This document shows, in pieces, positions 256-50,864 of a stretch of DNA of 64,000 nucleotides (positions within the stretch are counted from its first letter, which is position 1; every line of letters starts with the position of its first letter). A program made the translations under genes and the position numbers. The notes beneath the pieces were generated by a model. That model was not told where the DNA came from and made no database searches. It worked only from the letters and a program-made list of their open reading frames with translations. Location: the IMG/VR virus record IMGVR_UViG_3300034120_003123; one strand, given 5' to 3'. Source of the DNA: an uncultured virus (IMG/VR IMGVR_UViG_3300034120_003123) (Duplodnaviria; Heunggongvirae; Uroviricota; Caudoviricetes).

Positions 256-746
256 TTTATAAACACAGTAATTTTATCGGGAGAATACTGAAACTCAATA
301 TTTTCAGTGACAATACCAGCTTCGCTCAAGCAATTTACTATCATCTGCTTGAGTGGCTCAACATTAAACTTTTCTTTTTTTGTCTTAAACTTCACTCCAA
401 AAAGAACAGAATATTTTTTGGAAACAAACTCTTTTAGCTTATTTACCTTAGTTTCAAGGTCATGCTTGCCAATATGGGCAGTTATAAAAAGCTCTTTCGT
501 TTTGTGCGTGGAGGACTGTTTCTGCTTTGAAAGTTCATATTTGAACTTTCCAAAATCCATAATCTTGCAAGTTGGACGGTTTGAGTCAACAGAAACCTGA
601 ACAAGGTCCAGCCCTGCATCTCGCGCCCTCCTAAGGGCATCATCAATATGTACAGAACCACAAGACCTTCCTGACTCATCAATCAGGTGCACAAAAGAAG
701 CACGAATGTTGAAATTAACCGGGTATTTTTGAGCTAAGGAACTCAT
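252..746 (-). CDS. infC: Translation initiation factor IF3 (phage-encoded homolog)
   Basis: IF3 N-domain motifs NxxIRA..V.LID..G, DALRRA..AGLDLVQV, PTCKIMDFGKFKYE; C-domain KEL..T.HIG.HDLETK. Confidence 0.93.
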   Translation of the reverse strand: MSSLAQKYPVNFNIRASFVHLIDESGRSCGSVHIDDALRRARDAGLDLVQVSVDSNRPTCKIMDFGKFKYELSKQKQSSTHKTKELFITAHIGKHDLETKVNKLKEFVSKKYSVLFGVKFKTKKEKFNVEPLKQMIVNCLSEAGIVTENIEFQYSPDKITVFIK

Positions 747-7958: not shown

Positions 7959-8680
7959 GCTTCATTCCTAAAAAGTATACCACCACCAAATCTACCTCTC
8001 CATTTGTTTCTAAAATTATTAAGAGATTTTCGAAATGACATAGAGGCATTCAATGATCTTTGACCAAGAGTTTGATGAGGCATGTGATCTATCTTTGAAT
8101 TTTTATTCCATAATACAGGAATTTTTTTGTCATACGCTCTTAAACAATAATCTGGATCTTCAAAGTATGCGGGATTAAAACTATCGTCAAAACTTCCTAT
8201 TTCGTCAAAAGCTTCTCGCGAAATCATCATTCCTCCACATCCTACGTAAGAAAACCCACTATCTTTTAAAGAACATTTTCTTAATGGTGTAAAATTACTA
8301 GATAAAATCCAAGCCTCAATGCCACACAAAGACTTCTTATGAAGATTAAATAAATCTACATATCCTTCTGCCCATTTTTCTTTCACAAACTGATCATTGT
8401 CTATAAACATAATATGACTAAATTGATTTTGTTGTTTAAAAAAATTAAATATCATATTTCTTCCGCCTATCACTCCAGTATTGGTTTCGCTTTTTTCAAT
8501 TGTAATATTTTTTTTATCTTTACAAAAATTAACAATTTCTTGAAATGACCCATCGCTGGAATTATTATCTAAAAGATATATTGAATAATTTATATCATGT
8601 GTATAATTTTCTATACAGGTTATACACTTGGCGGTAACAGCCGACTTGTTGTATTGCAATATGCCAATCAAGAGATTCAT
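7955..8680 (-). CDS. Glycosyltransferase family 2 (GT-A)
   Basis: LLDNNSSDGS, NTG..GGRN, FIDND, IG.FD..F.PAYFEDPDYCLRA. Confidence 0.92.
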   Translation of the reverse strand: MNLLIGILQYNKSAVTAKCITCIENYTHDINYSIYLLDNNSSDGSFQEIVNFCKDKKNITIEKSETNTGVIGGRNMIFNFFKQQNQFSHIMFIDNDQFVKEKWAEGYVDLFNLHKKSLCGIEAWILSSNFTPLRKCSLKDSGFSYVGCGGMMISREAFDEIGSFDDSFNPAYFEDPDYCLRAYDKKIPVLWNKNSKIDHMPHQTLGQRSLNASMSFRKSLNNFRNKWRGRFGGGILFRNEA

Positions 8681-20600: not shown

Positions 20601-22090
20601 GATATAAATTTAATTTTTCTATCTATTAGGTTATCGTTAGATAGATTTAAATAAGAATTAGACTCTGTAATATTTATATCATTAGTAATTTTTATCCTTG
20701 CAGGCACATATGATGGATCTATTGGTTCACCCCAAATATCAGGAGATGTGAATATGTAATTTAAAGCTCTATTTCCTACTTTAGCCCAAAAAGAAAGGGA
20801 AGTACCATATAGTTGATTTTGAAAATATCTATTTTCAACACTAGAAGATAAAGTCCCATTTCTGTCAGGATAATGAAAGAAAGACAAATCTATTTTGCCA
20901 TATCCAATTTCTTGATTTATAAATGTTCCATTCAGTCCATGTAGCGTATTTGATACTGTTACTATAGAACCCATATATATTAAACGATTACCAATACAAG
21001 TAAAAAACATTGTACTAGAATCTCCAACTCCAAGAGTATCTAAACATGCATTTTGATATGCTAATGCATCTATAAATTGACTAGATTTTATATTTAATAT
21101 ATTAATAAAAGAGTCATTTTTAAAAAAACCAGATATCGCATTACAACACATTCCACGTCCAGACAAGTCTATTGCTACAAGTGGAATTTTTCTTGTTTTA
21201 GTAGCTTCGTCAGGATATTTCTTATAAGCTATATCTGGAACATTAGCTAATAAAACACCTGGAGGAAGCGGACTGTCAAGCAACCCTATTCCCTGATCAT
21301 TTTGAAAAAATGGAATATTATCATTATCTTCATTCTTTAAAATATAACTAGGTAGGTTAAAATTAAATTTTTTTACTATTCTTCTATTGATAATAGTTTT
21401 TTCAATGGTGTCATAAAATAATAAATCATATCCCATATATGGCCAAACGTGCTCAGAAAAACATACATGCATAGGAGTTACAGCCACAGCCTGCCTAAAG
21501 CCGTGCTTATTTGCACTGTAAGGAACAGGTAGTGGAATTCTATCAAATAATGCTACACAAGAAAATTTTTGATCTAAATTATTAAAAATAGTATTATTAT
21601 AAAAATTTCTATTTAATGGAAAAATTCTATTAAAAATTGCGCCATCTGAATGAGTAGAAAAATCAAACAAATCATGATATGTAGGGTTGTACCCTATTTC
21701 TTTAATTCCTGATTTTTCTATAGAAGATCCATCTGCAGTGTAAACTTTCCAATCACGCGCAGCATATCTGACAGCTCCACTTTTTGCGCCAACAACTATA
21801 TCGTCCTTACAGATACCTCTATTTCTAAAAACTGGAGGATTATAGCCATTTGATACAAGACGCAAATTATTAGTGCTAGCGTCAAAGCCAGACACAATAG
21901 CAAATGGTGCTTCGTAAATTTTAAAATAACCTGGAAAACCAAGATACTCGGCAGAAGAATTAGAAACTTCTATTTTTCCCAAAAAGTATACATTTTCTCT
22001 ATAAATAAAAGACTTGTCACCCATTGGCCCTGGAAATCCGCCACATTCTAACATATATTCATTAGATAAAGAAGCCATATATGCCATCAT
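20597..22090 (-). CDS. 497-aa protein with trypsin-like (PA clan) protease-fold domain
   Basis: AVTPMHVCFSEH (His), DQGIGLLDSPLP (Asp), GVGDSST (Ser); parallels the N-terminal domain of the 5595-aa protein. ATGA coupling at both ends. Confidence 0.65.
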   Translation of the reverse strand: MMAYMASLSNEYMLECGGFPGPMGDKSFIYRENVYFLGKIEVSNSSAEYLGFPGYFKIYEAPFAIVSGFDASTNNLRLVSNGYNPPVFRNRGICKDDIVVGAKSGAVRYAARDWKVYTADGSSIEKSGIKEIGYNPTYHDLFDFSTHSDGAIFNRIFPLNRNFYNNTIFNNLDQKFSCVALFDRIPLPVPYSANKHGFRQAVAVTPMHVCFSEHVWPYMGYDLLFYDTIEKTIINRRIVKKFNFNLPSYILKNEDNDNIPFFQNDQGIGLLDSPLPPGVLLANVPDIAYKKYPDEATKTRKIPLVAIDLSGRGMCCNAISGFFKNDSFINILNIKSSQFIDALAYQNACLDTLGVGDSSTMFFTCIGNRLIYMGSIVTVSNTLHGLNGTFINQEIGYGKIDLSFFHYPDRNGTLSSSVENRYFQNQLYGTSLSFWAKVGNRALNYIFTSPDIWGEPIDPSYVPARIKITNDINITESNSYLNLSNDNLIDRKIKFIS

Positions 22091-25000
22091 ATACTCCTGT
22101 TTAAAGTTTTAACAATGTTTTTATTCTTAGAATACACATTGTTATTAGAGAATACAAGTACATCAGATCCGCTTGTAACCAGTATAATTGGTTTAGCAAT
22201 AGGAGTTTGTATAATATCAAAATAATTAGCAGGATCTTCAGAGACGAAAAGTGCCCCATCAGACCTTAATGCGTACACAGTAGCACCAACAAGATTTGAA
22301 CCAACTTGATTTTCCTCTACAACTATATCAACAAAAGAAGTAGAACTATTTGCAATAACAGATTCTGTAGCAAGAGTCGCTTGCAGACTGCTAGACCCAA
22401 GCATATTAAGTGCAGAGATGAACACTCCCTTATCGGTTGCAACTACATATCTATTAAAGAATTTTGCTACAGATCTTACATGATACGAAGCAGTTTCTGT
22501 AGATATTTTTGAGAACGATTGATTGTTGCTTGTCCAGTATATATTTTTTCCTAAACCAATATTAGAACTACTAGTAGGTGTGAATTTATATATTCCATCT
22601 GGCATATTTGATCCAGTAATCGAAGGAATATAAACTTTAATAAAATTTGGTGCATCATAAAATTTATAGAATATTCCAGAACTTGTACTTAATACAAATT
22701 CAGAATCATTGCCATATCCGCATATAGGAGAGCCAATCCCTCCTGGATAGCCAACTGAATATCTTAATTCCATTTCAAAGGTGAAAACCGCAAGCCTACT
22801 CGAAGTACAAACAGTTATTCCATCATCGAATACGTTAGCACTCAGCAAATTCTCTCCATCTTCAAAGTTAAAGTTTATAAAATCAAAATCTAAATTGTTG
22901 TTTAATTTGCCAAGGTTTTTACTACCAACTATAAGCATGAATTCATTATTAACTGCTACAACTTGCTGTAAAACGCCAAGTTCCTTAACTGCTTGAGAAC
23001 TAGAAACAATCTTTTTATGCAAAATGTCTGAAGAAAGATTATCTATGTTTCTAGAAGTAATTTCTTCAAAATTAGTTACAAACGAACCGCTTGATTCGAC
23101 CGCTTCTTTTTGAGAAGTAAATGATTTATAGTAACCAAGATAATTAGTTTCATATCTGATGCTATCAACATACATATCTAGCATCTTGCTTCTTTGAGAT
23201 ATTACATTGATATTTTCTACTTGACCTAAACCTGCAGTTAGCCCGGTATTAACACCTTCAAAAGAATCCTCCAGAACTGCATGAGGAACAGAACCTGCAT
23301 ATTTAATCGACTCATTTTTGACTTCTAAAGATATAACATCATATTTGCCAACCTTTGAGCCGTTAAAGAACGTAATAATTCCACTATATGAATCTCCTTT
23401 TGCTATAACAACAGGACTCAATTGACTAAAATTAATATTTAGACTGTCTGCTACAGATCCACCAAATCCTGTATTATAATATTGTATGCCAAATTCTTCA
23501 CCTATAGACAAAGATCTTTGACCAGATACATTTGCAAAATTTGCAGCTTGATTAAATTCGTTAGAACTTGATGAGCTTGGTTCTTCTGAAGATGAACTTG
23601 AAGATGAACTTGAAGATGAACCGATAGGACGTGAACTACTTGATGAAGATGCAAAATCAATATACTCATCTTCAAAAGATGATGAACTGCTCGAAGCAAA
23701 ACTACTAGAGCTACTGGAAACTGGCCAAACAAAATTAGGACATTCGCAGCAACCATACCCAAAATTGAGCAATAATATTTGGTCAGCTACATTTATATTG
23801 CCGTCTCCATTTAAATCAGCAGCAACGGATTGTCTGGAATTGTAATTTACCCGACCGGACAGCGCAATAAGTGCATCTAAATCTCTAAAGTCAATAACGC
23901 CATCTCCATTTATGTCGGGGCACCCATAAGGGCCACTCCATACTCTTGTGCATATTGAAGAACTAGAAGAACTAGAAGAACTAGAAGAACTAGAAGAACT
24001 AGAAGAACTAGAAGAACTAGAAGAGCTAGAAGAACTGCTACTGCTCGAAGATAAAGATGTTTTTTGAATCTCCATTACCACAAATGCATGCATTCCTATT
24101 TTGTCAACATTTACATTCCACATAGAAGATTCTTCATCGTAATATAAAGATATCTCATTGTCATCTACTACAGAATAAGAATCGGAGTAATCAAAATAAC
24201 TTATTTTAAAAGTTATATCCTGAGCACTAGCAAGAGAATTTACTATCCATGAAAAAGATTTATTAGAGTAATCATTAATTGGATAATTTAATCCAAAATA
24301 ATCAAAGCCATCAATTTTTTTGTTTACTGTAGCGTTCAAGCTTTCTGGAAAAAATGCAGAAGACAAATTATTTTCATTGTATATTTGCAACCCATTTAAG
24401 CCAATTGAGCTTCCAACACTAAACTCTATGCTTTTGACGATGCCATCTGCTAATTCAAAATTTCTAGATTCTGTGATAATATTTTCATTTTTTAGCAATA
24501 TGACATTATGATAATGTCCAGCTGAAATTTTAACAACTTTTTTACCATTTAATTCTGGATAATCAAATTGTCCAAAATTATTACTAAATCCAGGTATACC
24601 AGTTTCATAATTTGCCTTACCCCATAATGCCACAGTGCCGTCAGACTTTAAAGCTAAAGTATGAAACACTCCGGTAGAAACATCTACATAATTTCCACTT
24701 CCAGCATAATCTCCACGAGAGTTTGGAACTTCAGATGGAAATGGATTACCATTAAAAAGAGAAAGTGCATCGTAATGACCTCCACTACCCCAATAAACCA
24801 GATTGCCACCTATTGTTAAAGCAACATTGTGACTCATGCACGATGATACTTTTTTTATGCCTTCAGAGAAAGCAGGAGGAGAGCACTGTCCTTTATTATT
24901 TCTACCCCAACACACGACAGAGCCATTTGATTTAATTGCTACCGTATGAAATCTGCCAACAGCAATATCTATAACGTCAACAGCATCTTCTGGAACATCA

Positions 25001-28000
25001 CATTGCCCAAACTTGTTATAACCCCAACACATTACTTTATTGTCCATAGTAATTGCTGCAGTATGAAAATCTCCAGAAGCAATTTTTTTTGCATGCGTTA
25101 GCTGTGTTGGAGTATTTAGTTGGAATGTATATGGTAAAAAAAGTGGCATTTCCAAATCTGGGTCCCAAGGATAGGACCATGCAAACAAGTTATTTACTGT
25201 TGCCATTCCAGGGTCTGCACCAATCCCAAAGACAGAGTTGTCTTCTCTTATAAAATAAGTGTAACCAAATCCACTAGAAACACTTTTAATATTTTTATTA
25301 AAACGTGACGGAATATCAGATTGAGCAAAAGAATTTGCTGCTGGATACCATAAAAGAAAATCTATATAATTATCAACTTTATCAGAAGCCCAATCTGTTA
25401 GGTAAACAGTTTTATCATTCATTATAAATGCAGTATGAAATCTACCAGCAGAAATATCAATAATACTACCACGTAATGGTGGGTCATTATGATAATTATA
25501 ACCTTCTCTTACAACGCCACTACAAAAAACTTCTGGAATTCCATCTCCATCTAAATCATCATTACTGCTTGAACATAATCTAAAGCTATCCCAGCCCCAA
25601 GATCGCACTCTTTTATTTTCAGTAATTACAGAATATACTCCAAAATATGACGTATTCAATGTGCGTACTTTTCCAATATTACCTGGTGGGACAGGACTTA
25701 AATAAAGACCTTCAGTAAATGGATCTGGAGTAGACGAATCTCCACCTGCAGCTTCATAACCCCAGTAAATTAAATCACCAGTTGATTTTAATAACATACC
25801 ACCAAGCCTAGAAGAGGCTATATCTATAATGTCTGTTGAATTTTTAGGAAATTCATATTCAGAATTAATTATTTCATTTTCTCCATGCAAAGTTGCAGTG
25901 CCATTTGCGTGAAGAACAGTTACATACCAAGAACTAGCAGATATTTTGACCGCATCTTCTATGAGAAGAAGATCTGAATAGCCATCCAAGAAAACCCAAT
26001 TACCCCAAATTTTTATTCTTCCATCTCTTAAGAGAACTATATATCCCTTGCCACGCAAAGATACTAAACTACCATCGTCAAATCCATCGTCATCAAAAAA
26101 AGCTTTTGACCAATATGAAGAAACATAATGCACGCTTAATGCATTGGATACTTCTGGACAATTTGTCTCATTTTGCCTGTTAGTGCCCCATGAGAATAAA
26201 GATCCGTTGGATAAAATTATAGTTGCATTGTCTTCACCCATCGCAATTGCAGTTGGAATGCTTTCTCCTATATAGTCAAAAACATCTATATGCAAATTAG
26301 ATTTATCTTTAATAATAAAATTTGTTGATACTAAACTAAAATCTTCAAGTCTTGGAGTAATTGAAACTGAATATTTATTGTCCCAACTCCAAAATACACA
26401 TTTACTACCATTTGGAGAAAACGAAAATTTTCTAACACCACCTAGGGCGCTGAGCCAAAAAGGAAATTTTTCTATGTTACTTTCTTCTGTAGGAACAAGG
26501 CTAATTATAGATTCCCAACCAGCAATGCACCATGCGCCACTTGATCTTGTGCAAACTATAATATCGTTGTTTTGTACACCCATAGCCAAATCGTCAATAA
26601 ATGAATCAAATTTTAAATATTCGGTATCTTGAGTATCAATTTCTAAAATTGAACCAACACTATTAATAATTCTAACAACTTTTCCAAAACCTACAACAAT
26701 ATAGTTATTATCTTGTGAAAATTTCACATAACGAGCAACGTAATCATCATAATTTTCATCGTCAAACTTTAAAGTCCATAAAGAATCGCCACTATCAACA
26801 CTAATTGTTCTCACAAAAGTCCATTTTCCAGTATAAGAATATGAGGCAATCGCAATTTTACTTTCATCATTGCTAATATCAACCTGCTTATGCACATTAG
26901 GATACATCAAAGATGGTATTTCGTCATCAGACAAGTCCTCTATGTAATGTAGGACATTAAAATTAGAGTCTAAAATAGCACCAAGTCTTCCATTTGCATC
27001 AGGCAAATTATAAGTATCTAAAAGCATGACCAACCATTTAGAGCTATTTGGCAAGTATCTTGCATAAGCTATAGGAACAGGATCATCTACATTTAATCCT
27101 GGCGTAAAAATATCCCATATTTTTTTCTTACTTACTATTTCTTGAGATGCAATATTTATTTTGTAGATATACCACAATCCAAATACAAATACATGATTAC
27201 TGTCATCACTTACAGAATGACACAAAATGCTATCATTTATTATATCAGTTTCATTGCCTAGCCAATCAGTCCAAGTCCATGCTGGCATCCATGCGTTTTC
27301 TGGATCTAATCTATTTAAAACTATTGTTGAGGGATTTATGTATGCATTATTTTTTTGAGCAATATTGTATATTTGAGCTATGTTATATGCGTTAAACTCC
27401 CAACTATATGAACATCCAAATATTGCATGCAAGTTATCATTGGTAAATTGTATACTGTTACATGGAAGTATATATAATGGATTTTCTTCAACCCAAACAT
27501 TGTCCGAGCCAAAAATTATATTATCTTCTTCTTCTTGGGTATTAACATTCACTCTTCCTATTTTACCATTTCCATTAATATAATATACACTATCTCCGTC
27601 TTTACTAAACTTTACATCTCTACATATATTATATTGTTTTTTACCATGCACTACTACATCTAAATTACCAGATACTGAATCTACTAGTATAACTCCTAAT
27701 TGAAATAAAGAAGAAGAAAAATTGATTACTGTATTATCTGAAATAAATGCTGGAAGCGGTCTCATTCCAAATTTAGTGCTTCCAGTAGAATACAAATGAC
27801 CGCTATCGTTTAGTACAAATGTATTACCTTCTTGCACTTCTACTTTTTTTGGATTGTCTGAATAACGTATATAAGATTGATCTTTGTTTACATAAAATCT
27901 AGGCAATGTTGTGTACAAATCGTTCCAAGCATTTGCTCTATCATATTCTGCAGGATTTGATCCAGCACCCCAAGCAACAACCTCAAAAGATTCATTTTCA

Positions 28001-29850: not shown

Positions 29851-29875
29851 GATATTTATTACTGTCCTTATATGA

Positions 29876-29888
29876 TATTTCGTAAATT
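29876..29888 (-). promoter_or_regulatory. Candidate promoter motif AATTTACGAAATA upstream of the 2587-aa gene
   Basis: In the 63-nt spacer, followed by an AAGGA SD-like sequence and TAAATA before the ATG. Confidence 0.4.
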
Positions 29889-29913
29889 AATTTAAAATAC
29901 TACTACAAGAGAT

Positions 29914-38900: not shown

Positions 38901-41900
38901 CTCTAACTGCATTGGCAAGACCCAGCTCCCAGCCATGAGGAGAACCTCCATTGCTATTCCATACAGAATCTGTTACATCTGGTATGCCATTCGGACCACG
39001 ATGATCTAATATATTGTTTCCACTTGACGAAATATTAAGATTTTCAAAATTTAAAGTATAATTATTTAGTATCTTTACTTCTGGTCTAATACCAAGTTCT
39101 TCAGGCAATGCTTGAGAATTTCTAGCCAAACCACCAGAATTAGATTCTCCAATCATGATAATTAATGGAACATAAAGATTACTGCTAGTATTATTAATAT
39201 AAGAATTAATAAATGATATATTATTATATATTGAAGTCTCAAAAACATCAATCAATGTGGACTGATCTGAGCAGCCATCTATAGACAAGTCCCAACAGCT
39301 ATTTACTGCACCATATACTTCAGGATTAGAAATAGAAATGGGACAATTTTCAAAAATTAATTTTTCTATGTTTTCTTGCTCTGAATAATATACAAACCCA
39401 TCTATGTTTTTGTTGGTAAAAGGATCAATAGATTCTTTAATAATTTCTGCATTAGAAACTTTACAATAATCATTCTGACCTAAACCGTCAGAAGATAAAT
39501 GAACTCCATTAATTTCAACAAATATAGATGGACAATCTGCTTGTCTATATTCAAAATGTTTAACCAAACATGAAAGTCTTAGCTTTGATGCAGAGACCGA
39601 ATCAAGAGCTGAAGAAAGATCAGGCTCTGCACTTTCATTCCCGTTCCACAAGTAAATAAAGTCACATGCTTCCAACAAAGGTCCATAAAATTCAGATACT
39701 CTTTTACTCAATTCTTTTCTAGCATTAGGGGTGCAATTAATGGCAGAATAAGGAGTTTTAGATGTCATGCTTTCTTCAAAATCACTGTCATTAATTCTTC
39801 CAAGACCTCTAATAGATACAGAAATGTTTTGATTAATAAATTTAATTGCATTAATCAGTGCTATCAAATTACCATTCACATAAGCTATTGCTCTTCTAAC
39901 ATTATCATAAGAATCTGAACCCTGCGAATTTATTGTAAATGGGTACGAGCAAGCGTAGGCGTGTAGGGAGCTCTGATTATCGTTTATGTTAAATAAGTGA
40001 TTAAAATCTATTACAACACCCGCATAGTAATCTGTGATGTCTTTCTCGCCTAAAGTGTAATTAAATATTGCGTCATTTATATCAGAAATATATTTTACTA
40101 CACCATCTATGATTGGCATGCCATTAGAGTCAATATTGTAGTAAATACTTGAATTATCACTTACCGGTTTAATAAAAAGCATCAAACCATTTGATATGTC
40201 TGAGACAGAAGATATTTCATTTTCTACAAAACTTGCCCAAGAAGAGCCATCATCAGGATTTAAAGATCTGTCTATTTTTGCTTTTGAAGCATAAATCTTG
40301 TAAGTTGAAGAGCTTTCGCACTCGCATGCGCTATTAGCATTAACTTCCTGATAAAGAGAAGATAGCGATGGCAGGTTAGAAGCTATAGTACAAATCCCCT
40401 CATTTTGAATGACAATTCCACCTATAGAAAAATCGCCATTACCACAAGGGTTAACTTCAGTAGACTCTAAAAATCCCAACAAAGTGTGAGAAGTCGGATA
40501 TCCAATTTCTCCAATACAGTTTCGCAACCAGTCATATGCGTCAGGATTAGATCGAGCATGACTCTCTAGCTCTGAAAATATTGTATTTGCAACTACTTCG
40601 CTTTCCACTAAGGAATTGCCGCACACCAATCTAATCTTAATCACGTTAAATGAAGTCGGCTGAGATTGTAAATCATTAAGTAAATTAGCAAATTCATTAT
40701 TGTTAGAAATTTTAAGAGAATCTTGATTAACGCAAATTCCAACATGTGGGATAATCTGTTCGTTTTTCATTTGAACCTGAACAACTGAACCTATTTCAAA
40801 AGGTACAACATCTATCATATCCCCATTAACAAACATATCAACTGGTCCAAATATTCCACTTTCTTTATCAAGTAGTAATTGACGTAATCTATAAGGAGAC
40901 TGAGATGCATTGAAAGTTATTCTAGCACCTCTATTGCTGTTCCAAACTGGAGGATATCCTGCATAGTAGTTTAACTTTCCTCTTGCTGGTAATACATCTA
41001 CTGGAATAGCTCCTGCAGCAGCGTGCTCAACATAATAACAATCTCTTCCAGCAAGGGTGTTGATAGTCGTAAAAGTATCAGAATAAGTGCAACTGCAAAC
41101 ATCTAAAATCTTCCTTAAACCCAACGAACTTACCAGATCATTCTCTGGATCATTTGGAGAAGCTAGTAGCAGATTTTGCCTACCACATGTTCCATTAATA
41201 GGATAATTATTTGTCGTAAGCCCAAAGAAGCCAAACTTTCTTGCATCATGCCATGCAGCATCTGCAATAAGCGTAACAAGCAATGATTCATTCCCATATG
41301 AGTCTAATCCTATTTCATATCCTGCTATAGGAACTGGTTTTTCAGGCAAACTATCTGGATAAGAAAATTCTGTCTGTAATACGATATTTCTTGAACCTTG
41401 CTGAATTAACGTCCATAGCTGGTCTCTTGCAACTTGCCCTCTAGTCTTATTCCCAACTAATTCCGTATTATGGAAATTGTCATCAACTTGACCATTTGCA
41501 ATTTCATCTTGCAAGTATATTACATGTCCATTAAAACTGTCTAATTCTTGTCTTGCAGAAATGGGTAATAAATTTTTATCAAATGGTACTATAACAACGC
41601 CAGAATTAGTAAAATTATTAACCGTAAATGCATCATCTTGCGCGATTACATATGGGATGCCGTGCTCGACACACGTTTGTACTGCGCCAAAAATAGGCCA
41701 ATAATATGAGAAATTAGCATAAGACTCATTTATCCCAGTGTTTATAAAAGCATAACTTCCCCATCCTACTTCTGGCCTGTGCAATATTACGCACCATGCA
41801 ACATTAGTTCTATTAAACAACCTAACATTTGCGTCACCTATTGAACCTAATATGGACGAGATTCTTCTCATGAAGGGTAAGTGTTGAATAGCAAATGCGT

Positions 41901-44900
41901 CAGCACTATTTTCAAAACCAGAAAGATCTTCTATTTGGTCATATTTGTACCAATCATAAAACGCATACATAAATTCTGGAGTTGTATGTGAAACTAGAGC
42001 AAGAAGAGATTGATTTTCCAGCCAACCACGAACAGCTATGTCTCTTGGAAGAACATTATTTTTAAACTCTACCTTACCAGAATACCCACTATCAAAAGAT
42101 GTCAAACAAGACTTGAAGGTATCATCGCAAGTACCCCCAGATATCCAGTTTGGTATAAACCACTGGCCAATCTGCCATCCATAAGCCCTCTTGCCTGTGC
42201 GAGCTTGAGAAAGGAGCAAGTCGGTATGCATCGCAAGCCAAAGATCTGGCACTGATTTAGCGCCAGTTTTATTCGTAACTCCAGGTGCTTGTCTTCTGCG
42301 AACATACCCTTCTGCACCGATTTCAGTTTTTACTCCAGACGCATACAAAACAACGTCTTCAGAATTCCCAGGCCATTCAAAAGAAGGCTGAGAGTTTCCT
42401 ACTGCATGCAGTATAGCAAATTCCGAGTAGCCAGCCTGATCAACTGCCTCTCTTATAGTTCTGACTATATCTGGCTGTTTATTATTTAAAGCATATACAT
42501 AAGCTTGAAGCTTATCTTTTACTGCCTGAGTCCATCCAAAAGAAGGATTGGGATCTCTTAGTAGCAAAGTTCCAGGGTTGGCATTGGCAGTTACACTACT
42601 AACAAAGTCAGTCAAAGCAGTGGTGTCAGAGCCGTCTGCTGGATTATTCAATGGCCATGGAAAGTTTGTAGTTGAATCGATACCAGATGCGGATATTGCA
42701 TCTGGACTAAAATCTAGTGTATAAAACAATGGAGCTGCATCCCACATGCAACCATTAAACCCATATCCAGTTTCTAGATCATAGCATTTTTGAGCCATCT
42801 CAACGTGTATTTTAGCAAGTAATTCAACAAATGCACTATTGAAACAAGATCTATAACTAATATTAGGTCCGTGACGACCTTCAATAACATGATTTCCAAA
42901 AATGTCTAAAGCATATGGATAAACAGAAGAATCAAGCTCAATCCAAGCAAATGGGAAAAAATAAGCCATTAATTTTTGTTTATACTTATTAGATGCGTCC
43001 TTATATGCCTGAACAACGTCTAATCCCAATCCCATGGAAGTAGATTCTTCCCCATCATCTGCTAACAAGGCCCACTGCTGCATCCCTGGGATTTGAGTGT
43101 CCCACCATAAAGGCTCAGAGCCGCCATGTAAAAATACTAAAGCCCAATCTGGACTGTATCTTGACATTCCCCTGATCATTCCATCAACATCAAAATATTC
43201 TTTAAATGCTGCTCTTGTGCCAGCTATTTTTGAAGTATTTCCGCTACCACATGCAGGCAAAGTTGAAAGTTCGTAAGTCAAACTTGATGGTAAGCTCCAT
43301 CGCTTAAACCAATTTATGCCACCGTCAACAGTGCTGGTGCAAAGTCCAGAACCTAACGTGCAAATCTGGCAAGTTTCATATGAGCCGCCCGGATAATATT
43401 CAGACCCGACTTCTGAGGCAGATACTGGAAAATTTCTTACGTTTTGATCATACCACAAAACCATATCAAACGCACTAAACTGATATTGTAAAGCAAATGT
43501 GGAAGACTGAAAAAATTCTACTTGATTAGATCCAAGAACTGGAAAACCAGAAATAGGAACTGTCTGAAAATCTGCAACTTCTATAATATCTGGCGAAACT
43601 TCTTCTGTGCAATCCTGTCTTGCGCCACAGTCGGACTTTGAACCTTCATAAGAGTTTCCTAAAATATCAGTATTTAACAATGTAGCTGTTTCTATTCCTT
43701 TAGCTGGATTAGACACTCCATTTAAACTAACACATAAAAGCGAAAGATTACCCTCACTATAGTTTTTTACAATTTTATGAACACTTTGATTAACTTGCTT
43801 ATTTTTATCATTAACAATTAATGATAAAAATAACGGATTATTTGACTGAGTTGGTAATAAAAATATATTGGAAGATATTTCTGAATTAGAATTTAAAAAT
43901 CCCTGATTTAATGCGACAGAGCCTGCTCCAAGGGACGCAGACGAACCAGAAGTAGAGTCTACAATAATCCCATTGAGCAGATTACTTTTACAATACACGT
44001 CTGAGACTAAGACATCACCGCCCCAAACTCCACCACTAGCATCATGTATAGACAAATAGTCTAACATACTATTGTGTGACATGAAAATCTGCTTTATACC
44101 ATTATATATGTATGATTTACCTGGACCTCCAGTAGCTCTAGAAAAATAATTTGATACAATTGCAAAACCTTCAAAGTAAATTTCTGAATCAAAAACGTTA
44201 CGATGTGGATTAATCCTAAAATGAGATATAGCAGATTTATTAATCTGATTCTTTGCAACTATAATGTTACTTTTTGCCAATGAAGTATGGCTAAAATTAA
44301 TGACAGCTGAATCTGCGACAGCACCAACATTGCCGACATTAGATATATTGCAAGAGAAAATTGAAGCACAATTTTTAATTGCAAACTCTACAGTATTACC
44401 AATTCCACATTGCTTTAACATTACAAAACCGTCAAATCCTCTATAAAGACTATTTACATTGCAATTAGTGGCAAAACCAACTACATTTTGAGCAATACCC
44501 GGATATGCTTTAAAAAAAATATTAACTTGATTGTTCAAAGTAGATACTAGAGTATCAACAGAGACGCCTGAGCGTCCTCTAATAGAGCAGTTGTTTAACC
44601 ACACACCTCTAGAATCAAATCCATAAGAACCGTCAGTAGAAATAATGTAATCTTTTTCTCCCGAAACATTTGTACTACTGTCATAGAAATTTTCCAATGT
44701 TATATTTTCAAAGACAGTAAACCTAGAGACTAAAGTATTTGATTTTACAGCATAGCTCGTCGGATTGGCAACACTGCCAAAATTAGTTGAACGATTTGTA
44801 ATTACGACATCTTTTTTACTTAAACCATCCAGCGCTTTTATTTTTAACCAACCTATTCTTCCAGCACCCAAAGCAAGTGCAGATGGAGTTCCAGAAGAAT

Positions 44901-46701
44901 AATCACCATTTAACAATGGACTTAGCCTGTACTCTCCAGCTTTGCATATAATCACATCTTCTTTAATAGAATTTTCTAAATGAAATGCGTGTGCTGCGGG
45001 AATCGCATTCCATAAATTTTTAAATGGGCTATTAAAAGAACCATTATTCGAATCATCTCCATTAACCGCATCTACATATACCGTATTGCCATCATAAGAG
45101 CCACGATTAACAATAAAAGTAAAATCGACTTCTCCATTATTAAAATAATTATAAGGATCAGATATACTACTATATTTAGGCAACCAAGAACCTTGAAGTA
45201 CTCTCTTTGTCCCATTATTTGCATAAACAATAGCTCTTATTGTGTGTATTCCCTCGGACCAAGAATCATTTATATCTATACTGCAAGCATACTCATCTTG
45301 CTTAGAACTAGAGTCAGCAACCGGATTTATAACACCTATAATATGAGCTCCAGATTCGTACTCTCCTCCATCGCATATAAAATCTACACGCTTTATTCCT
45401 GTAGAGTGATAGGCGACAACGGAGGCCTTTACCGACTCACCATCATGGATCCACTGCAATGGAACACTGGACCAACGAGCTATAGGAGGAGAGTCAGTAT
45501 CGGAAGTCATATCGATATTCCTTGCAAACGGATTATCAGAAGATATGGGCATCCACAAACCTGAGTCAACATTACTTGAACTACTGCTTGAACTACTGCT
45601 TGAACTACCTATGGAGCTACTGCTTGACGAATTGCCGCCTCCGGTAGTAGAGTAATTGACTAAGCCAATATTGTACCCGATTCTATCAAAAATATATTGT
45701 TTTAAAGCATCAAACCATTTTTTTGTAGCCGTTGGATTTGCAGTATTGCCGTTGTCTGATATCGTCATTCCACCCCAAGCAGAGTATAAAAAACATGTTT
45801 CATCAATACCAGGAACATAAGCAAACACTGGAGTCCCGCTGTCGCCAACCCAAACACTAAATGTAGATTGCGTTGGAACGCCGGAAACTAAACTGCCTCT
45901 ATATGCAGCATCAGGATACAAATTTATATTAAAATAATCATTTCCTAAAGAATTCAGTACAGATACAACGCTTTGAGGAGAAACATAAAAAAGTGGAACA
46001 CTTGTTGGCAAATTAAATGCATTTAAAAATTTATAAACTTTAATTTGTTGCATTTCCTGCTCTGTAAGAGCAGTGTCTAATTCAAATAAAGTATAATCAA
46101 AAGATGAATTTGGCCAATTATATCCAGGTGGAAAATTAGATGAATTACTAAAGTCTATAAGCTTTGTTGCATTTCTAGTAACTACTTGATTATTTTTTCC
46201 AAGCAAGCGTATTGAAGTGTTGTTGTTGCCAGAACCAACATAGTGTGCTGTTGCAAGAAAATGTTTTGGGCTAATCAAGACTTTTGCCCATGCTCCATTA
46301 TTCCAATGATTATAATTAGAAGCTATTTCAAAATTACCAACAGGACAGCCTAAATGGTAGCAGTCTGCATTGTTGCCAAACGACCTAAACTGGCCAGCTA
46401 TGCTAGGCAGAGTAACAGATCCACTGCCAGAATTTACCAAAACACCGGATGGTAGATACCCAGACTGACCTTCGTATTGATTAAATCCGTAACCAGGAGC
46501 ACCCCTACCTTCACGATCCATTCCGCTAAAATCAACATTAAAATTTAAATTATAAAATGGATCTTTAATAAATAAATTTTGATTATAACCAGTTGGATAT
46601 ACTCTTCTATTATTTTGCCAATTACTAGGATCTATAATCGGCTGAGACCCATAGGTGTACAGGTCATGTAAATTAGGTTTATAGTTAATTATGTAAGCCA
46701 T
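29914..46701 (-). CDS. Giant 5595-aa multi-enzyme protein: trypsin-like protease, DUF1565/beta-helix, 3x GH42/GH151/GHL6-like modules, SASA/CE6-like esterase, further TIM-like domains, 2 dockerins, poly-Ser linkers
   Basis: Protease: LISPKHFLATAH/DYTLFELD/GDSGTP. DUF1565-like: TVYVDAVNGDDSNNGS..PFK. GH modules: three copies of Y[SR]PD...EP...[ND]G..W[DS]...WPI.GA...[VI][IV]Y. Esterase: GESNSGG/GHGGS/GINDC/DIYH. Dockerin: DLNGDGVVNGADLG. No signal peptide. Confidence 0.88.
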   Translation of the reverse strand: MAYIINYKPNLHDLYTYGSQPIIDPSNWQNNRRVYPTGYNQNLFIKDPFYNLNFNVDFSGMDREGRGAPGYGFNQYEGQSGYLPSGVLVNSGSGSVTLPSIAGQFRSFGNNADCYHLGCPVGNFEIASNYNHWNNGAWAKVLISPKHFLATAHYVGSGNNNTSIRLLGKNNQVVTRNATKLIDFSNSSNFPPGYNWPNSSFDYTLFELDTALTEQEMQQIKVYKFLNAFNLPTSVPLFYVSPQSVVSVLNSLGNDYFNINLYPDAAYRGSLVSGVPTQSTFSVWVGDSGTPVFAYVPGIDETCFLYSAWGGMTISDNGNTANPTATKKWFDALKQYIFDRIGYNIGLVNYSTTGGGNSSSSSSIGSSSSSSSSSSSNVDSGLWMPISSDNPFARNIDMTSDTDSPPIARWSSVPLQWIHDGESVKASVVAYHSTGIKRVDFICDGGEYESGAHIIGVINPVADSSSKQDEYACSIDINDSWSEGIHTIRAIVYANNGTKRVLQGSWLPKYSSISDPYNYFNNGEVDFTFIVNRGSYDGNTVYVDAVNGDDSNNGSFNSPFKNLWNAIPAAHAFHLENSIKEDVIICKAGEYRLSPLLNGDYSSGTPSALALGAGRIGWLKIKALDGLSKKDVVITNRSTNFGSVANPTSYAVKSNTLVSRFTVFENITLENFYDSSTNVSGEKDYIISTDGSYGFDSRGVWLNNCSIRGRSGVSVDTLVSTLNNQVNIFFKAYPGIAQNVVGFATNCNVNSLYRGFDGFVMLKQCGIGNTVEFAIKNCASIFSCNISNVGNVGAVADSAVINFSHTSLAKSNIIVAKNQINKSAISHFRINPHRNVFDSEIYFEGFAIVSNYFSRATGGPGKSYIYNGIKQIFMSHNSMLDYLSIHDASGGVWGGDVLVSDVYCKSNLLNGIIVDSTSGSSASLGAGSVALNQGFLNSNSEISSNIFLLPTQSNNPLFLSLIVNDKNKQVNQSVHKIVKNYSEGNLSLLCVSLNGVSNPAKGIETATLLNTDILGNSYEGSKSDCGARQDCTEEVSPDIIEVADFQTVPISGFPVLGSNQVEFFQSSTFALQYQFSAFDMVLWYDQNVRNFPVSASEVGSEYYPGGSYETCQICTLGSGLCTSTVDGGINWFKRWSLPSSLTYELSTLPACGSGNTSKIAGTRAAFKEYFDVDGMIRGMSRYSPDWALVFLHGGSEPLWWDTQIPGMQQWALLADDGEESTSMGLGLDVVQAYKDASNKYKQKLMAYFFPFAWIELDSSVYPYALDIFGNHVIEGRHGPNISYRSCFNSAFVELLAKIHVEMAQKCYDLETGYGFNGCMWDAAPLFYTLDFSPDAISASGIDSTTNFPWPLNNPADGSDTTALTDFVSSVTANANPGTLLLRDPNPSFGWTQAVKDKLQAYVYALNNKQPDIVRTIREAVDQAGYSEFAILHAVGNSQPSFEWPGNSEDVVLYASGVKTEIGAEGYVRRRQAPGVTNKTGAKSVPDLWLAMHTDLLLSQARTGKRAYGWQIGQWFIPNWISGGTCDDTFKSCLTSFDSGYSGKVEFKNNVLPRDIAVRGWLENQSLLALVSHTTPEFMYAFYDWYKYDQIEDLSGFENSADAFAIQHLPFMRRISSILGSIGDANVRLFNRTNVAWCVILHRPEVGWGSYAFINTGINESYANFSYYWPIFGAVQTCVEHGIPYVIAQDDAFTVNNFTNSGVVIVPFDKNLLPISARQELDSFNGHVIYLQDEIANGQVDDNFHNTELVGNKTRGQVARDQLWTLIQQGSRNIVLQTEFSYPDSLPEKPVPIAGYEIGLDSYGNESLLVTLIADAAWHDARKFGFFGLTTNNYPINGTCGRQNLLLASPNDPENDLVSSLGLRKILDVCSCTYSDTFTTINTLAGRDCYYVEHAAAGAIPVDVLPARGKLNYYAGYPPVWNSNRGARITFNASQSPYRLRQLLLDKESGIFGPVDMFVNGDMIDVVPFEIGSVVQVQMKNEQIIPHVGICVNQDSLKISNNNEFANLLNDLQSQPTSFNVIKIRLVCGNSLVESEVVANTIFSELESHARSNPDAYDWLRNCIGEIGYPTSHTLLGFLESTEVNPCGNGDFSIGGIVIQNEGICTIASNLPSLSSLYQEVNANSACECESSSTYKIYASKAKIDRSLNPDDGSSWASFVENEISSVSDISNGLMLFIKPVSDNSSIYYNIDSNGMPIIDGVVKYISDINDAIFNYTLGEKDITDYYAGVVIDFNHLFNINDNQSSLHAYACSYPFTINSQGSDSYDNVRRAIAYVNGNLIALINAIKFINQNISVSIRGLGRINDSDFEESMTSKTPYSAINCTPNARKELSKRVSEFYGPLLEACDFIYLWNGNESAEPDLSSALDSVSASKLRLSCLVKHFEYRQADCPSIFVEINGVHLSSDGLGQNDYCKVSNAEIIKESIDPFTNKNIDGFVYYSEQENIEKLIFENCPISISNPEVYGAVNSCWDLSIDGCSDQSTLIDVFETSIYNNISFINSYINNTSSNLYVPLIIMIGESNSGGLARNSQALPEELGIRPEVKILNNYTLNFENLNISSSGNNILDHRGPNGIPDVTDSVWNSNGGSPHGWELGLANAVRDKMFSRDVAYLIKAGHGGSKIGDDSIPGDWDTSGIYWNLFLQRYSAAISELNVDGYSPQTYIWYEIGINDCISNVNVDQWKNKLVQKINNIRSVTGVNSPVFITLLPDVAKTGDLTDSISDFNNAILEICVDQQLVYWVKSDDAHLRFNDIYHWDYYGMKLISSRMSKLSANTIGEGGNYVVSLDNPPLQPDYSDYRPIVAAVPYNEEPDPVLEFVYPVFTVRGRLSGGPTLDEPGTGPTPSHIGNPSDAIGFFNARGIPAVKRFVFYFNIGSSTFDGVFADPIYNQTYDKLYNPADSCINVNGEIVKQDTLDPREGSNPTFRGNLPFISPWTLGANTRLEQFTRQWVAEYKNLNGKIYGFISDNESLNPTGFWAESSLRYDNNNTSRIPHFTKIINDPRASLTDSSAGYASEINQTLVQQLRLNDFYNINDFDVVDTKTVDDPQFRGGYLHWDYVMYRHAIWYAQKHWYDVISEYFPGHNSTHVWTFYVPKEDHFNDMNGHITYRDMLCGDTANPLLFAEAGGISVNSEIDPNNKTRTRFLSQYNPGGTPFGSRAWNALLLQQQEIKAIRRHGENQKFIPWIGSRNLTLNNAFGGKNDVNHNSLWAEGVYHLALHNPNAIYMFYPRNSDGAGDTAWYPENGLVSYQLLNSILKEVNQRTGNKIISLVESSVQRIDLDSKVLITGCKTIKNKHLWRITADVINVNEVIIDGNVFAVDSNSPAIWYETEINVGSIDILSYNAATKSIILISSVAEGPLCKQCLTYRVAPAFTADEISVDSSSLPQNVSKMIQISDKYLTRNSYDEADSCGAGVFRINACQRYAFYENDNLRYNYNGAINYINEVVLKNSDVNLIDYTGYIGAEFSKIKQLFVEYLSNASGLAVMGDSLQSGISQMFENIQAIKNSSPKAKVGLLNCPVVPFIAPNITWSSASDSVKFNYIDKCASIIEDVISESDFICLDLRQEISVKNTEEYAEYLAYIRSVSKGFNDWLASKNLVKTIFGIVSKESYVDFNALPGYQYRQSVAITADYVHGFIDSSDVILRWLELFDSDSSNDNGALSAISNVIGFEISGADSTSYNAIAAYGLNNLAELKSEISRNCRSYNSTNDNVNTIGFRPSRGPDYPEWLSNSSLAMKFNLTAEDIKSCAALAVPHMPASSSVPVDDVIVCSFINTQYISTSSLYDIQTSLPCSTTRNINTARSSFLNGLKIQDFVDYAQSYSPDILVFNAHQYDEPLWYATDTAIGQWNILTNDPRYGLGFGVDILLSYSVAANFINARCIVEINPCSFVTLPAAKYPYSLNCFGGIIKENFDGGINISIRSFLNQDYVDLTFDYHNEIFDKGIDGIMWSREVVSKFGDFSTNVIEKFARYLGYENIDDSEFKEKFPFPVACGSILGNYLYNAAGFTGSCDSSANISVEDIAFKIPTFGTIFTQDIKNTVIEYHAFCHNLANTNILYLQSKINEYYGSRVKAIIPHVENDIFYNWKSCLSAEISNYSSIVSTNSGIEKQARSRRIQNPSAASNTVDIQRPGAATVENFGLDLLSSADGKKIIVKKIPNILRYRDTDFSSLWNEFDNVNSTNIVEDGIVREDGIKGHLASCVFDYMRAGHIVMLDMPSWSTYKDDGDTLSNSYINSDPPRNDMPFILNVIDLNNQLKQNVSSLYRQNKHAWIGIHYANRARKYIHVSDAVSSNGQEFYSDINLDLSRYGYSGNMTIGEFAWPIIGAYETCIYSGISSAVINDSSLENGDFSSLKLIIIPHRKLLNSLQKDKLNQFEGSVIYLEDLLSQTGNRWYSTASDLSESTPDYVTLYNLLSLRIKNLVGSSPIKVKLNVDNSIVTDSGKYFLKPSSVFDAGLNSDVHRIVVCVSNDRNWADVRNNTNENGIFGLTSRNNDLLNTQSANQIFSSIYSNDSFYADGSYPVLGQFAYYAGDPPAGFGKSFSVFITFNNYISLVSAKQISLNFADNTVDSKVVSWSNGSSGQSISSNFISDFSWFEIEFKYETPPSSSSSSSSSSSSSSSSSSSSSSSSSSSSSSSSSSSSGCVVWTGPGCPDMDGDGFVGGADLGVYFSAFTDYNPIADLNGDGVVNGADLGILQSYWGSCVECPNWNGSSSSSSSSSSSSSSSSSSSSSSSSSSSSSSSSSSSSSSSSGCIVWNGPGCPDANQDGVVNQFDFDIFLASQEEYNPIADLNGDGFVNGNDIGVLLSFWDNCVICPNWPPSSSSSSSSSSSSSSSSSSSSSSSSSSSSSSSSSSSSSSSSINLFGVLNTRSAVGPNQPSWWSTANVHFQSFNPYATIKQIYEGNMEESASALIEPSLLLAYDNPSSGCSVRPYYSSSPNGYPPGYEFVYRSEYNWIRVEGSNFKERFNNGLNRWFNPEQRAIVAHRYRPDIVMIDLHNGDEPFIYKSAVPQAQSSLMISEEYGLPEYDMVRPFIRKSHELGMKCTAYFKPHFAFLKEDIFPPALTANGQKIRVEINLTQSCSVQRSIFNTNFKNFLKNCMIEIVTPESGGGLNCDGIYWDSSLLEEFLDFSNDAIDVFAKYLGYEGFDDPDYISWASVNFPFPKTSGWEVSTENGYVGGGDRPSYRDAYPDNTFEGLGYWNLVNNINDLDANEIANLKSYVSIIKNKYHEILREISDAVSVASNGNAVFFPGELPSWPDQPHGAVSVEIARHTHAVKTEFAVEPRGYSGLRKKSELTDSVLNNERLYCDIQRPSMYLSMTLNQKLDFASGNKTAIQWNPQRVWISDLPLGTSGAANTLTTFNSDRFYLYPTGYPLFFERGLGREDSIHGYLRAVYQIMIKNGNIFDFNTWYGTGWTGDQDEFIQDATLINNDGYYNNPNKGVSPGNTYSFWRKALYHARKMKEEIIKEGLILSIREAYSWAAIHVSTAGRIGINAPVAWGSGYVTGSNKLINLTNNTNSLGQNWGEFWWPILGAMQSFENKMIPYSLVLDDQLKNGELNGIKVIVVPHREWLSLAQELRLVEFVSRGGKVVYMDEIFNVT
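32138..32257. repeat. 12-bp tandem repeat (GAACTAGAAGAA)n with occasional 9-bp units; poly-Ser
   Basis: Read directly from the sequence. Confidence 0.95.
32262..32463 (-). other. Dockerin-like domain (second in the 5595-aa protein)
   Basis: GCPDANQDGVVNQFDF...IADLNGDGFVNGNDIGVLLSFW. Confidence 0.85.
32465..32584. repeat. 12/15-bp tandem repeat (GAACTACTGCTT / GAACTACTGCTGCTT); poly-Ser
   Basis: Read directly from the sequence. Confidence 0.95.
32590..32790 (-). other. Dockerin-like domain (first in the 5595-aa protein)
   Basis: GCPDMDGDGFVGGADLG...IADLNGDGVVNGADLGILQSYWG. Confidence 0.9.
32791..32899. repeat. 15-bp tandem repeat (GAACTACTGCTGCTT)n, imperfect; poly-Ser
   Basis: Read directly from the sequence. 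Confidence 0.95.
38390..39175 (-). other. SASA/CE6-like SGNH acetylesterase domain within the 5595-aa protein
   Basis: IMIGESNSGG (catalytic Ser), IKAGHGGS, WYEIGINDC, DIYHW (DxxH). Confidence 0.85.
45574..45630. repeat. Short poly-Ser repeat using the GAACTACTGCTT unit
   Basis: Same unit as the tract at 32465; separates the protease domain from the rest of the protein. Confidence 0.85.
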
Positions 46702-48498: not shown

Positions 48499-48501
48499 AT
48501 T

Positions 48502-50853: not shown

Positions 50854-50864
50854 AGTTTTCCTTT

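Follow-up and report, generated by a model that had tools for sequence, protein, structure and literature searches.

The 64,000-nucleotide (nt) stretch of DNA analyzed here (the window) belongs to an uncultured virus of the Caudoviricetes (IMG/VR record IMGVR_UViG_3300034120_003123), and two adjacent genes within it encode giant proteins that combine dockerin modules, strung on poly-serine (poly-Ser) tracts, with several glycan-processing domains. These proteins, P0001 (22087..29850) and P0002 (29914..46701), are the products of intact open reading frames (ORFs) of 2587 and 5595 amino acids (aa), respectively. Both genes lie on the minus strand, as do all 22 window ORFs of at least 150 aa and every window feature described below. 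The nearest public viral record, G001 (223,646 bp), contains all sampled 31-mers of the window, which is the reverse complement of G001 positions 29581–93583. The completeness of G001 is estimated at ~55% by CheckV, so that ~45% of the genome is absent from the record. From the window sequence alone, the region had been proposed to encode a viral cellulosome-like system with three dockerin-like domains, hereafter the original prediction.

The three domains were recovered within 11 nt of the positions first given for them, with support from Pfam as well as from fold comparison. The P0001 module, framed by cysteines, spans residues 1966–2044 (23719..23955; Dockerin_1 match, alignments A1/A2). 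Of the two P0002 modules, dockerin 1 spans residues 4638–4706 (32584..32790; AlphaFold2 model, Foldseek) and dockerin 2 residues 4747–4815 (32257..32463; Dockerin_1 match in the second half of P0002, alignments). Pfam Dockerin_1 scores 24.5 bits in P0001 and 28.9 bits in the second half of P0002, above the cut-off of 22.9 bits that is also exceeded by the other two giants of G001, P0003 (87.1 bits) and P0004 (36.1 bits). A PDB sequence search with P0001 returned the dockerin chain 2y3n_B (E 0.0018) for its module. Across G001, 11 Dockerin_1 matches in four open frames correspond by alignment to nine modules, three of them in the window, two framed modules in P0004 and four unframed ones in P0003. 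The nine fall into two sequence subtypes, and the D, G, and D positions of both Ca2+ loops are invariant in all of them. For P0002 dockerin 1, AlphaFold2 modeling on a nine-row alignment (mean pLDDT 92.4, pTM 0.79) places helices at residues 21–32 and 48–56, such that the unit of a 12-residue Ca2+ loop (D-x-[DN]-x-[DN]-G ... D) plus a helix is duplicated. When this model was compared with the PDB via Foldseek, all 19 listed rows (ranks 1–23) were dockerins, with 2y3n_B as the top match (probability 1.00, TM 0.67/0.77, rmsd 1.5 Å, 39% identity over 51 columns). The E-values, at best 2.7e-3, are weak, as is to be expected of a domain with 69 residues. Judged by profile, Ca2+ loops, and predicted fold, the three modules are genuine type I dockerins, and the concern voiced with the original prediction that they might not fold as such is contradicted by the model and its matches.

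A shared cysteine frame, likewise part of the earlier proposal, encloses five of the nine modules, in which C2, W5, P8, G9, C10, P11, and D12 at one end and C61, C64, P65, and N66 (C-x2-CPN) at the other are invariant. In the model, strands at residues 3–4 and 61–63 lie within the frame segments at both module ends, which suggests that the strands pair and that the four cysteines clamp the dockerin termini. A non-covalent “intramolecular clasp” is described for solved dockerins (Slutzki 2013, PMC3821032); disulfides within the phage frame would probably make this clasp covalent. With its pattern GCPD-x-DGDG ... C-x2-CPN, the frame is similar to the Ca2+-binding repeats of thrombospondin type 3 (TSP3) and may be a borrowed TSP3-type boundary. 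Identity of the modules themselves with TSP3 repeats was excluded by their two helices, by the Dockerin_1 scores, and by the absence of a TSP_3 match at E ≤ 0.01 in the four dockerin giants. Bacteroidota loci retrieved by the GCPD pattern (L098–L130; Flavobacteriia, Saprospiraceae) contain GCPD-x-DGDG as the repeat unit of long TSP3 arrays and are not dockerins.

The modules are suspended between serine tracts. In P0002, a 36-residue run (32791..32898) precedes dockerin 1, a 40-residue run (32464..32583) separates the two dockerins, and another 40-residue run (32137..32256) follows dockerin 2. In P0001, 32 serines (residues 1934–1965, 23956..24051; 9-nt tandem repeat, mixed TCN/AGY codons) precede the module, and only four short runs of 6–11 Ser each lie downstream. 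Long tracts on both sides, as initially described for each dockerin, are hence a property of the P0002 modules, and P0001 shows one on the upstream side only. At the DNA level, the Ser runs are 9–15-nt tandem repeats with mixed TCN and AGY codons, and the single difference between G001 and the window is one Ser codon (3 nt) at window 32503–32530, in the 12-nt-repeat linker that separates the P0002 dockerins, which amounts to in-frame variation of tether length. Outside the window, G001 carries two tRNA-Ser genes (L035:14953–15040 and L037:13032–13123) with anticodons GGA and ACT, the latter being unusual. They would read TCT/TCC and AGT; AGT and TCT are the commonest codons of the poly-Ser tracts (69 and 57, respectively, of 196), and the tRNA pair may be a supply for the phage’s own serine-rich giants.

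All four dockerin giants of G001 follow a common plan, in which a large body is joined through a Ser tether to one or more dockerins and these, through another Ser tether, to a C-terminal domain of some 460–740 residues. P0004 is a giant of 2671 aa encoded outside the window (L034:11884–19899), and P0003 (1776 aa) carries one dockerin at its N-terminus and three in tandem. Dockerin 1 of P0002 and dockerin 1 of P0004 are encoded 89 kb apart and are 91% identical as proteins. Their genes share a DNA block with 258 of 265 bases identical, which begins and ends inside poly-Ser DNA and outside which the sequences are unrelated. Six of the seven nt differences are amino-acid changing, in what is a small sample. 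The likely origin of this pattern is a recent copying of the cassette between giants, or a gene conversion, with breakpoints in the serine repeats, and the poly-Ser/dockerin/poly-Ser cassette postulated earlier does behave as a movable unit. Two different giants would accordingly present the same plug, as would suit a single shared partner. That the nearly identical dockerins stand beside unrelated domains argues against the neighboring C-terminal domains as dockerin partners. The architecture is old, since the order of framed dockerin, poly-Ser, and C-terminal domain is kept in P0023, a divergent fragment of a different contig (28% identity over 554 residues, E 7e-46). As to P0004 itself, the protein contains 82 Cys and matches phrog_38766, “virion structural protein” (E 3.3e-6). 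A Hint/intein-like segment that had been read by eye between its Cys-rich stretches (residues ~1180–1340) was dismissed, as no Pfam Hint match was found at E ≤ 0.01.

Further modules were recognized in both giants. P0001 is ordered as an N-terminal beta-helix, an RCC1 propeller, the poly-Ser tract, the dockerin, a Ser-rich linker, and a C-terminal domain. Its pectate-lyase-like right-handed beta-helix (residues ~240–600, 28051..29133) is matched by PF12708 with 45.5 bits against a cut-off of 27, the match covering the start of the helix only (residues 248–308), and PDB sequence matches comprise the beta-1,3-glucanase 5m5z (E 1.3e-5) and the polygalacturonase 7b8b (E 5.3e-5). The RCC1/BLIP-II-like beta-propeller (residues ~1408–1797, 24460..25629) reaches 179.5 bits with WD40_RLD and 152 bits with RCC1_2, and matches BLIP-II (1jtd_B) at E 1e-24. 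The C-terminal domain (residues 2089–2587, 22090..23586) is matched in relatives of the phage, as detailed below; no close relatives of P0001 were found in viral contigs.

P0002 combines a larger set of modules. Residues 2514–2766 (38404..39162) form an SASA/SGNH carbohydrate esterase, for which Pfam SASA scores 28.1 bits against a cut-off of 24.8 when a 433-aa segment is searched alone, and 23.0 bits inside a 2800-aa piece. The Ser, Gly-Asn, and Asp-x-x-His blocks of SGNH esterases are all present (GESNSGG at 2518, GIND at 2667, and DIYH at 2750). Three paralogous modules of about 620–740 residues each are distributed along the chain: copy 1 at residues ~1100–1745 (41467..43404; internal paralogy, alignment A5), copy 2 at residues ~3740–4395 (33517..35484; internal paralogy, hhalign), and the C-terminal copy 3 at residues 4856–5595 (29917..32136; hhalign, fold search). 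The family of copy 3 is rare, with 17 matches at E ≤ 0.001 among 1.84 billion representatives, and weaker matches of the family bear Pfam GHL6 and Glyco_hydro_42M. No direct Pfam match was obtained for the barrels; alignment A5 compared with GHL6 proteins gives an hhalign probability of 99.4% over 433 columns, and, at a low model confidence (pLDDT 54), GH42 enzymes still lead the fold search (6y2k, E 4.4e-9). We therefore predict, at the level of fold and profile only, that the three modules are GHL6/GH42-like barrels. Two further regions are leads: residues 520–1010 (43672..45144) resemble a right-handed beta-helix in that the language-model Atlas clusters Beta_helix/DUF1565/NosD/Pel9A are assigned at 0.91–0.93, with no Pfam match at E ≤ 0.01, and residues 1–357 (45631..46701) are a trypsin-like look-alike by the same kind of evidence (Atlas clusters “serine protease family”, 0.98), with GDSGTP at residue 286, candidate His/Asp residues at 153/203, and no Pfam match. 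The glycanase, esterase, protease, and beta-helix modules originally ascribed to the giants have thus fared unequally; beta-helix (PF12708) and SASA esterase are upheld, the glycanase is a fold- and profile-level assignment, and the protease remains a lead. The 497-aa ORF downstream (20597–22090) shows a weak colinear likeness to the trypsin-like P0002 N-terminus, with GDSS in place of GDSG. BLASTP did not bear out the suspected paralogy with that domain, the best E-value being 0.14 over weak colinear pieces.

By its gene content, the window covers part of the genome of a huge phage. A PHROGs search of 112 further ORFs of G001 identified DnaB, primase, DNA polymerase, UvsX, clamp and clamp loader, sigma factors, HNH endonucleases, a PurZ-like enzyme, and many sugar-nucleotide epimerases and glycosyltransferases, and relatives of the window helicase at 43–55% identity were found on 17 viral contigs of 39–548 kb. 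A megablast search with 12 kb of the window gave no match to deposited phages, and neither an Rfam family nor a tRNA was detected in the window. Structural hallmark genes were not recognized either. PHROGs searches of 142 proteins (20 + 112 + 10) revealed no capsid, portal, terminase, sheath, or tube gene, the same holds for 21 ORFs around the gpJ-like tail gene of a complete relative, and Pfam Terminase_6N was absent from all five records searched. The capsid and terminase genes that were to be confirmed on the contig have accordingly not been found; the structural genes of this lineage seem to be too diverged or to be located on the missing part of the genome. This gap, together with the classification of one relative as a provirus and the existence of giant dockerin-type proteins in bacteria (bioRxiv 10.1101/2023.11.21.568195), could be taken to mean that the region is a chromosome segment or degraded prophage of a bacterium with such giants, misfiled as viral. 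We regard this as barely credible in view of the dense one-strand gene array, the T4-like replication set (UvsX, clamp, clamp loader, DnaB, primase, and a split polymerase) with its HNH and PurZ-like companions, the complete lack of ribosomal or other cellular core matches among the 112 ORFs, the absence of Rfam families, and two relatives judged 98–100% complete as viruses. The worry that the contig might prove to be a cellular chromosome is allayed by these replication genes and by the helicase relatives on viral contigs.

Some of these genes deserve separate mention. The PurZ-like gene (L037:11639–12649, outside the window) matches phrog_1211 at E 2.3e-71, which hints at 2-aminoadenine in place of adenine in the phage DNA. 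DNA polymerase is split into two overlapping ORFs (L032:4192–5544 and 5537–7489, outside the window) that cover phrog_405 profile positions 33–435 and 425–944, respectively. At window 252–746, the phage encodes a translation initiation factor IF3 (IF3_N 85.7 bits; phrog_9787).

The position of the giants points to tail fibers. A gpJ-like tail protein of 1849 aa, of which the window holds the C-terminal part (61467..64000, the gene starting beyond the window), matches phrog_31 “central tail fiber J” (E 5.6e-8), and its gene is kept in all five relatives. In the complete relative G006, this gene is followed by four ORFs (533–2035 aa) and then by a phrog_16 helicase; the corresponding interval of the window holds eleven ORFs, the giants included, and synteny extends to the relative G004. 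The giants occupy, as judged from this gene order, a variable slot between the conserved gpJ-like gene and the conserved helicase. They are preceded by the end of the gpJ-like gene and by genes of 568, 783, 1228, 1245, 303, 541, and 212 aa, and followed by the genes of 497 and 3965 aa. The 568-, 783-, and 1228-aa proteins (46792..54551) have their first ~150 residues (from ~10) in common and diverge thereafter, the 1228-aa protein ending in a lectin-type Laminin_G_3 domain (47.6 bits). Such a shared start is usual in tail-fiber families and suggests alternative fibers on one attachment site. The first ~140 residues of the P0001 C-terminal domain resemble the C-terminal third of the gene after the gpJ-like gene in three of five relatives (for the 1492-aa protein of G004, 32% identity with residues 1043–1151, E 8e-12).

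On one PHROG match and this gene order, we infer that the giants are associated with the virion. Export signals were sought with a crude test, and the maximal hydropathy of the first 60 residues in the four dockerin proteins ranges from −0.06 to 1.64; the absence of a clear membrane segment is in line with release as part of the virion and not through the Sec pathway. The giants could nevertheless be made late and be freed at lysis, or act on the envelope of the infected cell, as soluble enzyme complexes that clear capsule or biofilm for the progeny without being parts of the particle. The lack of recognized structural hallmark genes nearby and the heavy investment in glycan metabolism, with its many epimerases and glycosyltransferases, speak for this view. 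Against it speak the position of the giants between the gpJ-like gene and fiber-like paralogues, the P0001 C-terminal domain being common to the gene beside gpJ in the relatives just mentioned, and the fact that phage beta-helix depolymerases are normally particle-bound, and we hold it to be very unlikely. The glycan-related genes comprise three for glycosyltransferases, with which the giant-gene block ends (6113..8680; Pfam/PHROGs), as well as at least six for sugar-nucleotide epimerases (phrog_540) and several for additional transferases on G001 (L033, L036, L037). The neighboring 3965-aa giant (8703..20600) carries a Kelch propeller. Its Pfam matches at E ≤ 0.01 are Kelch families, with Kelch_6 and Kelch_1 above the cut-off and VWA and discoidin below; a dockerin is not among them.

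A cellulosome requires a second half, and the search for it was negative. Pfam Cohesin (PF00963) gave no match at E ≤ 1 in any of three records (G001 and the two relatives of 98–100% completeness), PDB sequence searches with P0001, both halves of P0002, the 3965-aa neighbor, and the gpJ-like protein returned no cohesin chain, and none of 19 proteins of the giant-gene clusters contains tandem cohesin-sized repeats by BLAST; these searches covered phage records only, including the ~55% complete G001, and sequence profiles could miss diverged sockets. The observation that the window holds no obvious cohesin is in this way borne out. The Ig/FN3 domains of the 3965-aa protein that had been suggested as partners were not recovered, as this protein has no Ig, FN3, or cohesin match at E ≤ 0.01. 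Among the attributes of a cellulosome, dockerin-bearing glycan-enzyme chains are present, and a cohesin scaffoldin and Sec signal peptides were not found. Without its cohesin half, the label “cellulosome-like” is unproven. Many organisms with non-cellulosomal dockerins reportedly lack cohesins, so that a dockerin need not imply a partner of the cohesin type.

Four readings of the dockerins were weighed against this background. In the first, a phage-encoded, non-canonical socket on baseplate, fiber, head, or another giant fastens or cross-links the giants into a virion-borne, cellulosome-like assembly with an exchangeable set of enzymes. Nine modules of two subtypes in four giants of one record would suit such an arrangement, as would the P0003 dockerin at the extreme N-terminus, where fibers usually join the particle, and the giants, devoid of the N-terminal region of the smaller fibers, would need some other attachment. 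The socket gene could lie in the part of the genome absent from G001. We consider this assembly unlikely, given the negative cohesin and repeat searches and the occurrence of dockerins in only one of five relatives, on account of which no conserved structural socket is to be expected in the lineage. A second reading dispenses with partners; the modules would be Ca2+-stabilized beads that stiffen, shorten, or protect the tethers, or that bind glycans or Ca2+-rich matrices. It accords with the failure of the Pfam search to reveal a socket, with the TSP3-like frame, and with the co-occurrence of dockerin and TSP3 repeats as repetitive elements in giants of Omnitrophota (bioRxiv 10.1101/2023.11.21.568195). 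The core helices, however, retain the dockerin surface, the model superposing on cohesin-bound dockerins at 1.5 Å, and 91% identity across unrelated giants with predominantly nonsynonymous changes fits a selected binding surface better, small as the sample is; partner-less knobs appear improbable to us.

In a third reading, the two dockerin subtypes would serve a plug-and-socket display of enzymes, in which the giants, and perhaps other proteins, are plugged into a socket that is not a recognizable cohesin and that belongs either to the virion or to an array on the host surface. Free recombination of the poly-Ser/dockerin cassette within its serine DNA would let the phage move the plug between enzyme carriers and thereby re-tool its particle. 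We deem this display quite doubtful; if true, it would be the first assembly system of the cohesin–dockerin type used by a virus.

The relatives of the module bear on the fourth reading, which places the socket on the host. A profile of the framed module matched 1500 proteins at E ≤ 0.001 among 7999 candidates scored; those with a taxon name derive mostly from Planctomycetota/Phycisphaerae, with one each from Acidobacteriota and Woesearchaeota. When each prokaryotic species was represented by one genome and scanned, 79 loci were kept; the best-scoring ones belong largely to Planctomycetota and reach 62% identity across the greater part of the module. A pattern scan of viral contigs confirmed nine loci, all five of whose records contain Dockerin_1, and one of these records is a 48-kb contig with the P0004 orthologue. 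Among 10 profile-match sequences, P0023 is the only one to combine the full frame with poly-Ser.

Compared with the type I dockerins of cellulosomes (PF00404; 2Y3N chain B of Bacteroides (Pseudobacteroides) cellulosolvens), the phage modules share the duplicated Ca2+-loop-plus-helix, the Pfam score, and the fold. They probably also share a clasp that holds the termini together, formed in the phage by four invariant cysteines and W/P. They differ in being internal between poly-Ser runs rather than C-terminal, with no signal peptide seen, and in being borne by carriers of 2.6–5.6 thousand residues whose enzymes are not cellulases and that come with no cohesin or scaffoldin on the record. Non-cellulosomal dockerins of Planctomycetota (Phycisphaerae, Isosphaeraceae) have the closest core sequence, ADLNGDGVVNGADLGILL-x-WG, and RCC1-plus-dockerin architectures are present there, too (P0088, P0096, P0103). 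Unlike the phage giants, these proteins are cellular and carry the dockerin mostly at the C-terminus. Six translated non-Bacteroidota loci (five Planctomycetota or unnamed, one Armatimonadota) have neither the full four-cysteine frame nor poly-Ser flanks; in one locus from Planctomycetia, a lone Cys stands at either module end. The kinship of the dockerin core is weak evidence for Planctomycetota as the host, the domain being short and repetitive and the Bacteroidota loci having proved to be TSP3 repeats.

Giants of dockerin type in Omnitrophota, proposed to attach to prey surfaces and to process polymers (bioRxiv 10.1101/2023.11.21.568195), likewise combine dockerin/EF-hand repeats with discoidin-type and glycan-processing domains. 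As described in that source, they differ in being bacterial, membrane-anchored proteins of at least 30,000 aa with SecA-like domains, whose many dockerins are interleaved with TSP3 or CBM35-like units, whereas the phage proteins carry one to four. A viral contig from alkane-oxidizing enrichments bears dockerin domains beside a NosD-like beta-helix protein and was read in terms of adhesion (ISME J 2026, PMC13452462). It differs in being ANME-2-linked and in its S-layer gene and signal peptide, and the parts of that report available to us mention no Cys frame, poly-Ser cassette, or giant genes. With tailspike and tail-fiber depolymerases of phages, the giants share right-handed beta-helix and SGNH-type esterase modules, the location downstream of the tail-tip gene, and hypervariable mosaic evolution; they differ in being 5–10 times the usual size, with several catalytic modules per chain. 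Characterized tailspikes are not known to have poly-Ser tethers or dockerins. Literature searches turned up no paper on dockerins in proteins of huge phages or in tail fibers, nor one on phage giants whose dockerins are clasped by cysteines and tethered by poly-Ser.

We tentatively favor an account in which the giants fill the tail-fiber slot and their clasped dockerins are Ca2+-dependent plugs, most likely for a socket on the host surface; taken as a whole, it is possible rather than probable. Dockerin identity and fold, phage origin, fiber-slot position, part of the enzyme modules, and cassette mobility are established by the data, and the virion location, the disulfides, the Ca2+ dependence, and the nature and place of the partner are deduced. 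P0001 and P0002 would be oversized, multi-enzyme occupants of the fiber slot of a huge phage, built in three parts, namely a large N-terminal body, a flexible poly-Ser tether with one or two dockerins toward the distal third of the chain, and a C-terminal domain of 500–740 residues. Four cysteines and a short beta-bridge between N- and C-terminus would join the ends of each dockerin and turn the module into a knob on the tether. In the oxidizing, Ca2+-containing medium around a released virion, the dockerins would fold and then plug into a protein socket, most likely on the host cell surface. Docking could in this manner hold the enzymatic arms close to their substrates, the glycans of the envelope, for cleavage or de-acetylation. 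The host surface is preferred because Planctomycetota-like (PVC-type) bacteria bear this type of module on many proteins of their own, and because bacterial dockerin-type giants are read as prey-surface adhesins. Phage fibers, moreover, commonly borrow host binding modules.

Several observations weigh against the host-surface account. The socket searches yielded no partner of any kind, and the reported absence of cohesins from many organisms with non-cellulosomal dockerins tells against it as well. Planctomycetota are mostly GC-rich, compared with ~34% GC for the phage (about 29–39% along the window). The N-terminal region that unites the three smaller fiber-like proteins is missing from both giants, and none of the five relatives contains a match to the first half of P0002. 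No capsid, terminase, portal, or tail-tube gene was recognized in the PHROGs and Terminase_6N searches, so that one PHROG match and gene order carry the case for virion association. Finally, the barrel model is of low confidence.

What the analysis adds is a census of nine modules on one record, the synteny of the fiber slot, the exchange of a cassette between giants, and the GHL6/GH42-like assignment of the repeated barrels. Dockerins rank among the strongest modular protein connectors and have so far been tied to bacterial and archaeal surface complexes. Here, about 25 kb of phage DNA is spent on two giants that pair dockerins with several glycan-processing domains, which provides a concrete test case for what non-cellulosomal dockerins bind. 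The clasped module is small (69–79 residues) and confidently predicted; should its partner be identified, it could be developed into an engineered connector with stability outside cells. For very large phages, these giants point to an unexplored way of holding enzymes to the host envelope or of building the particle.

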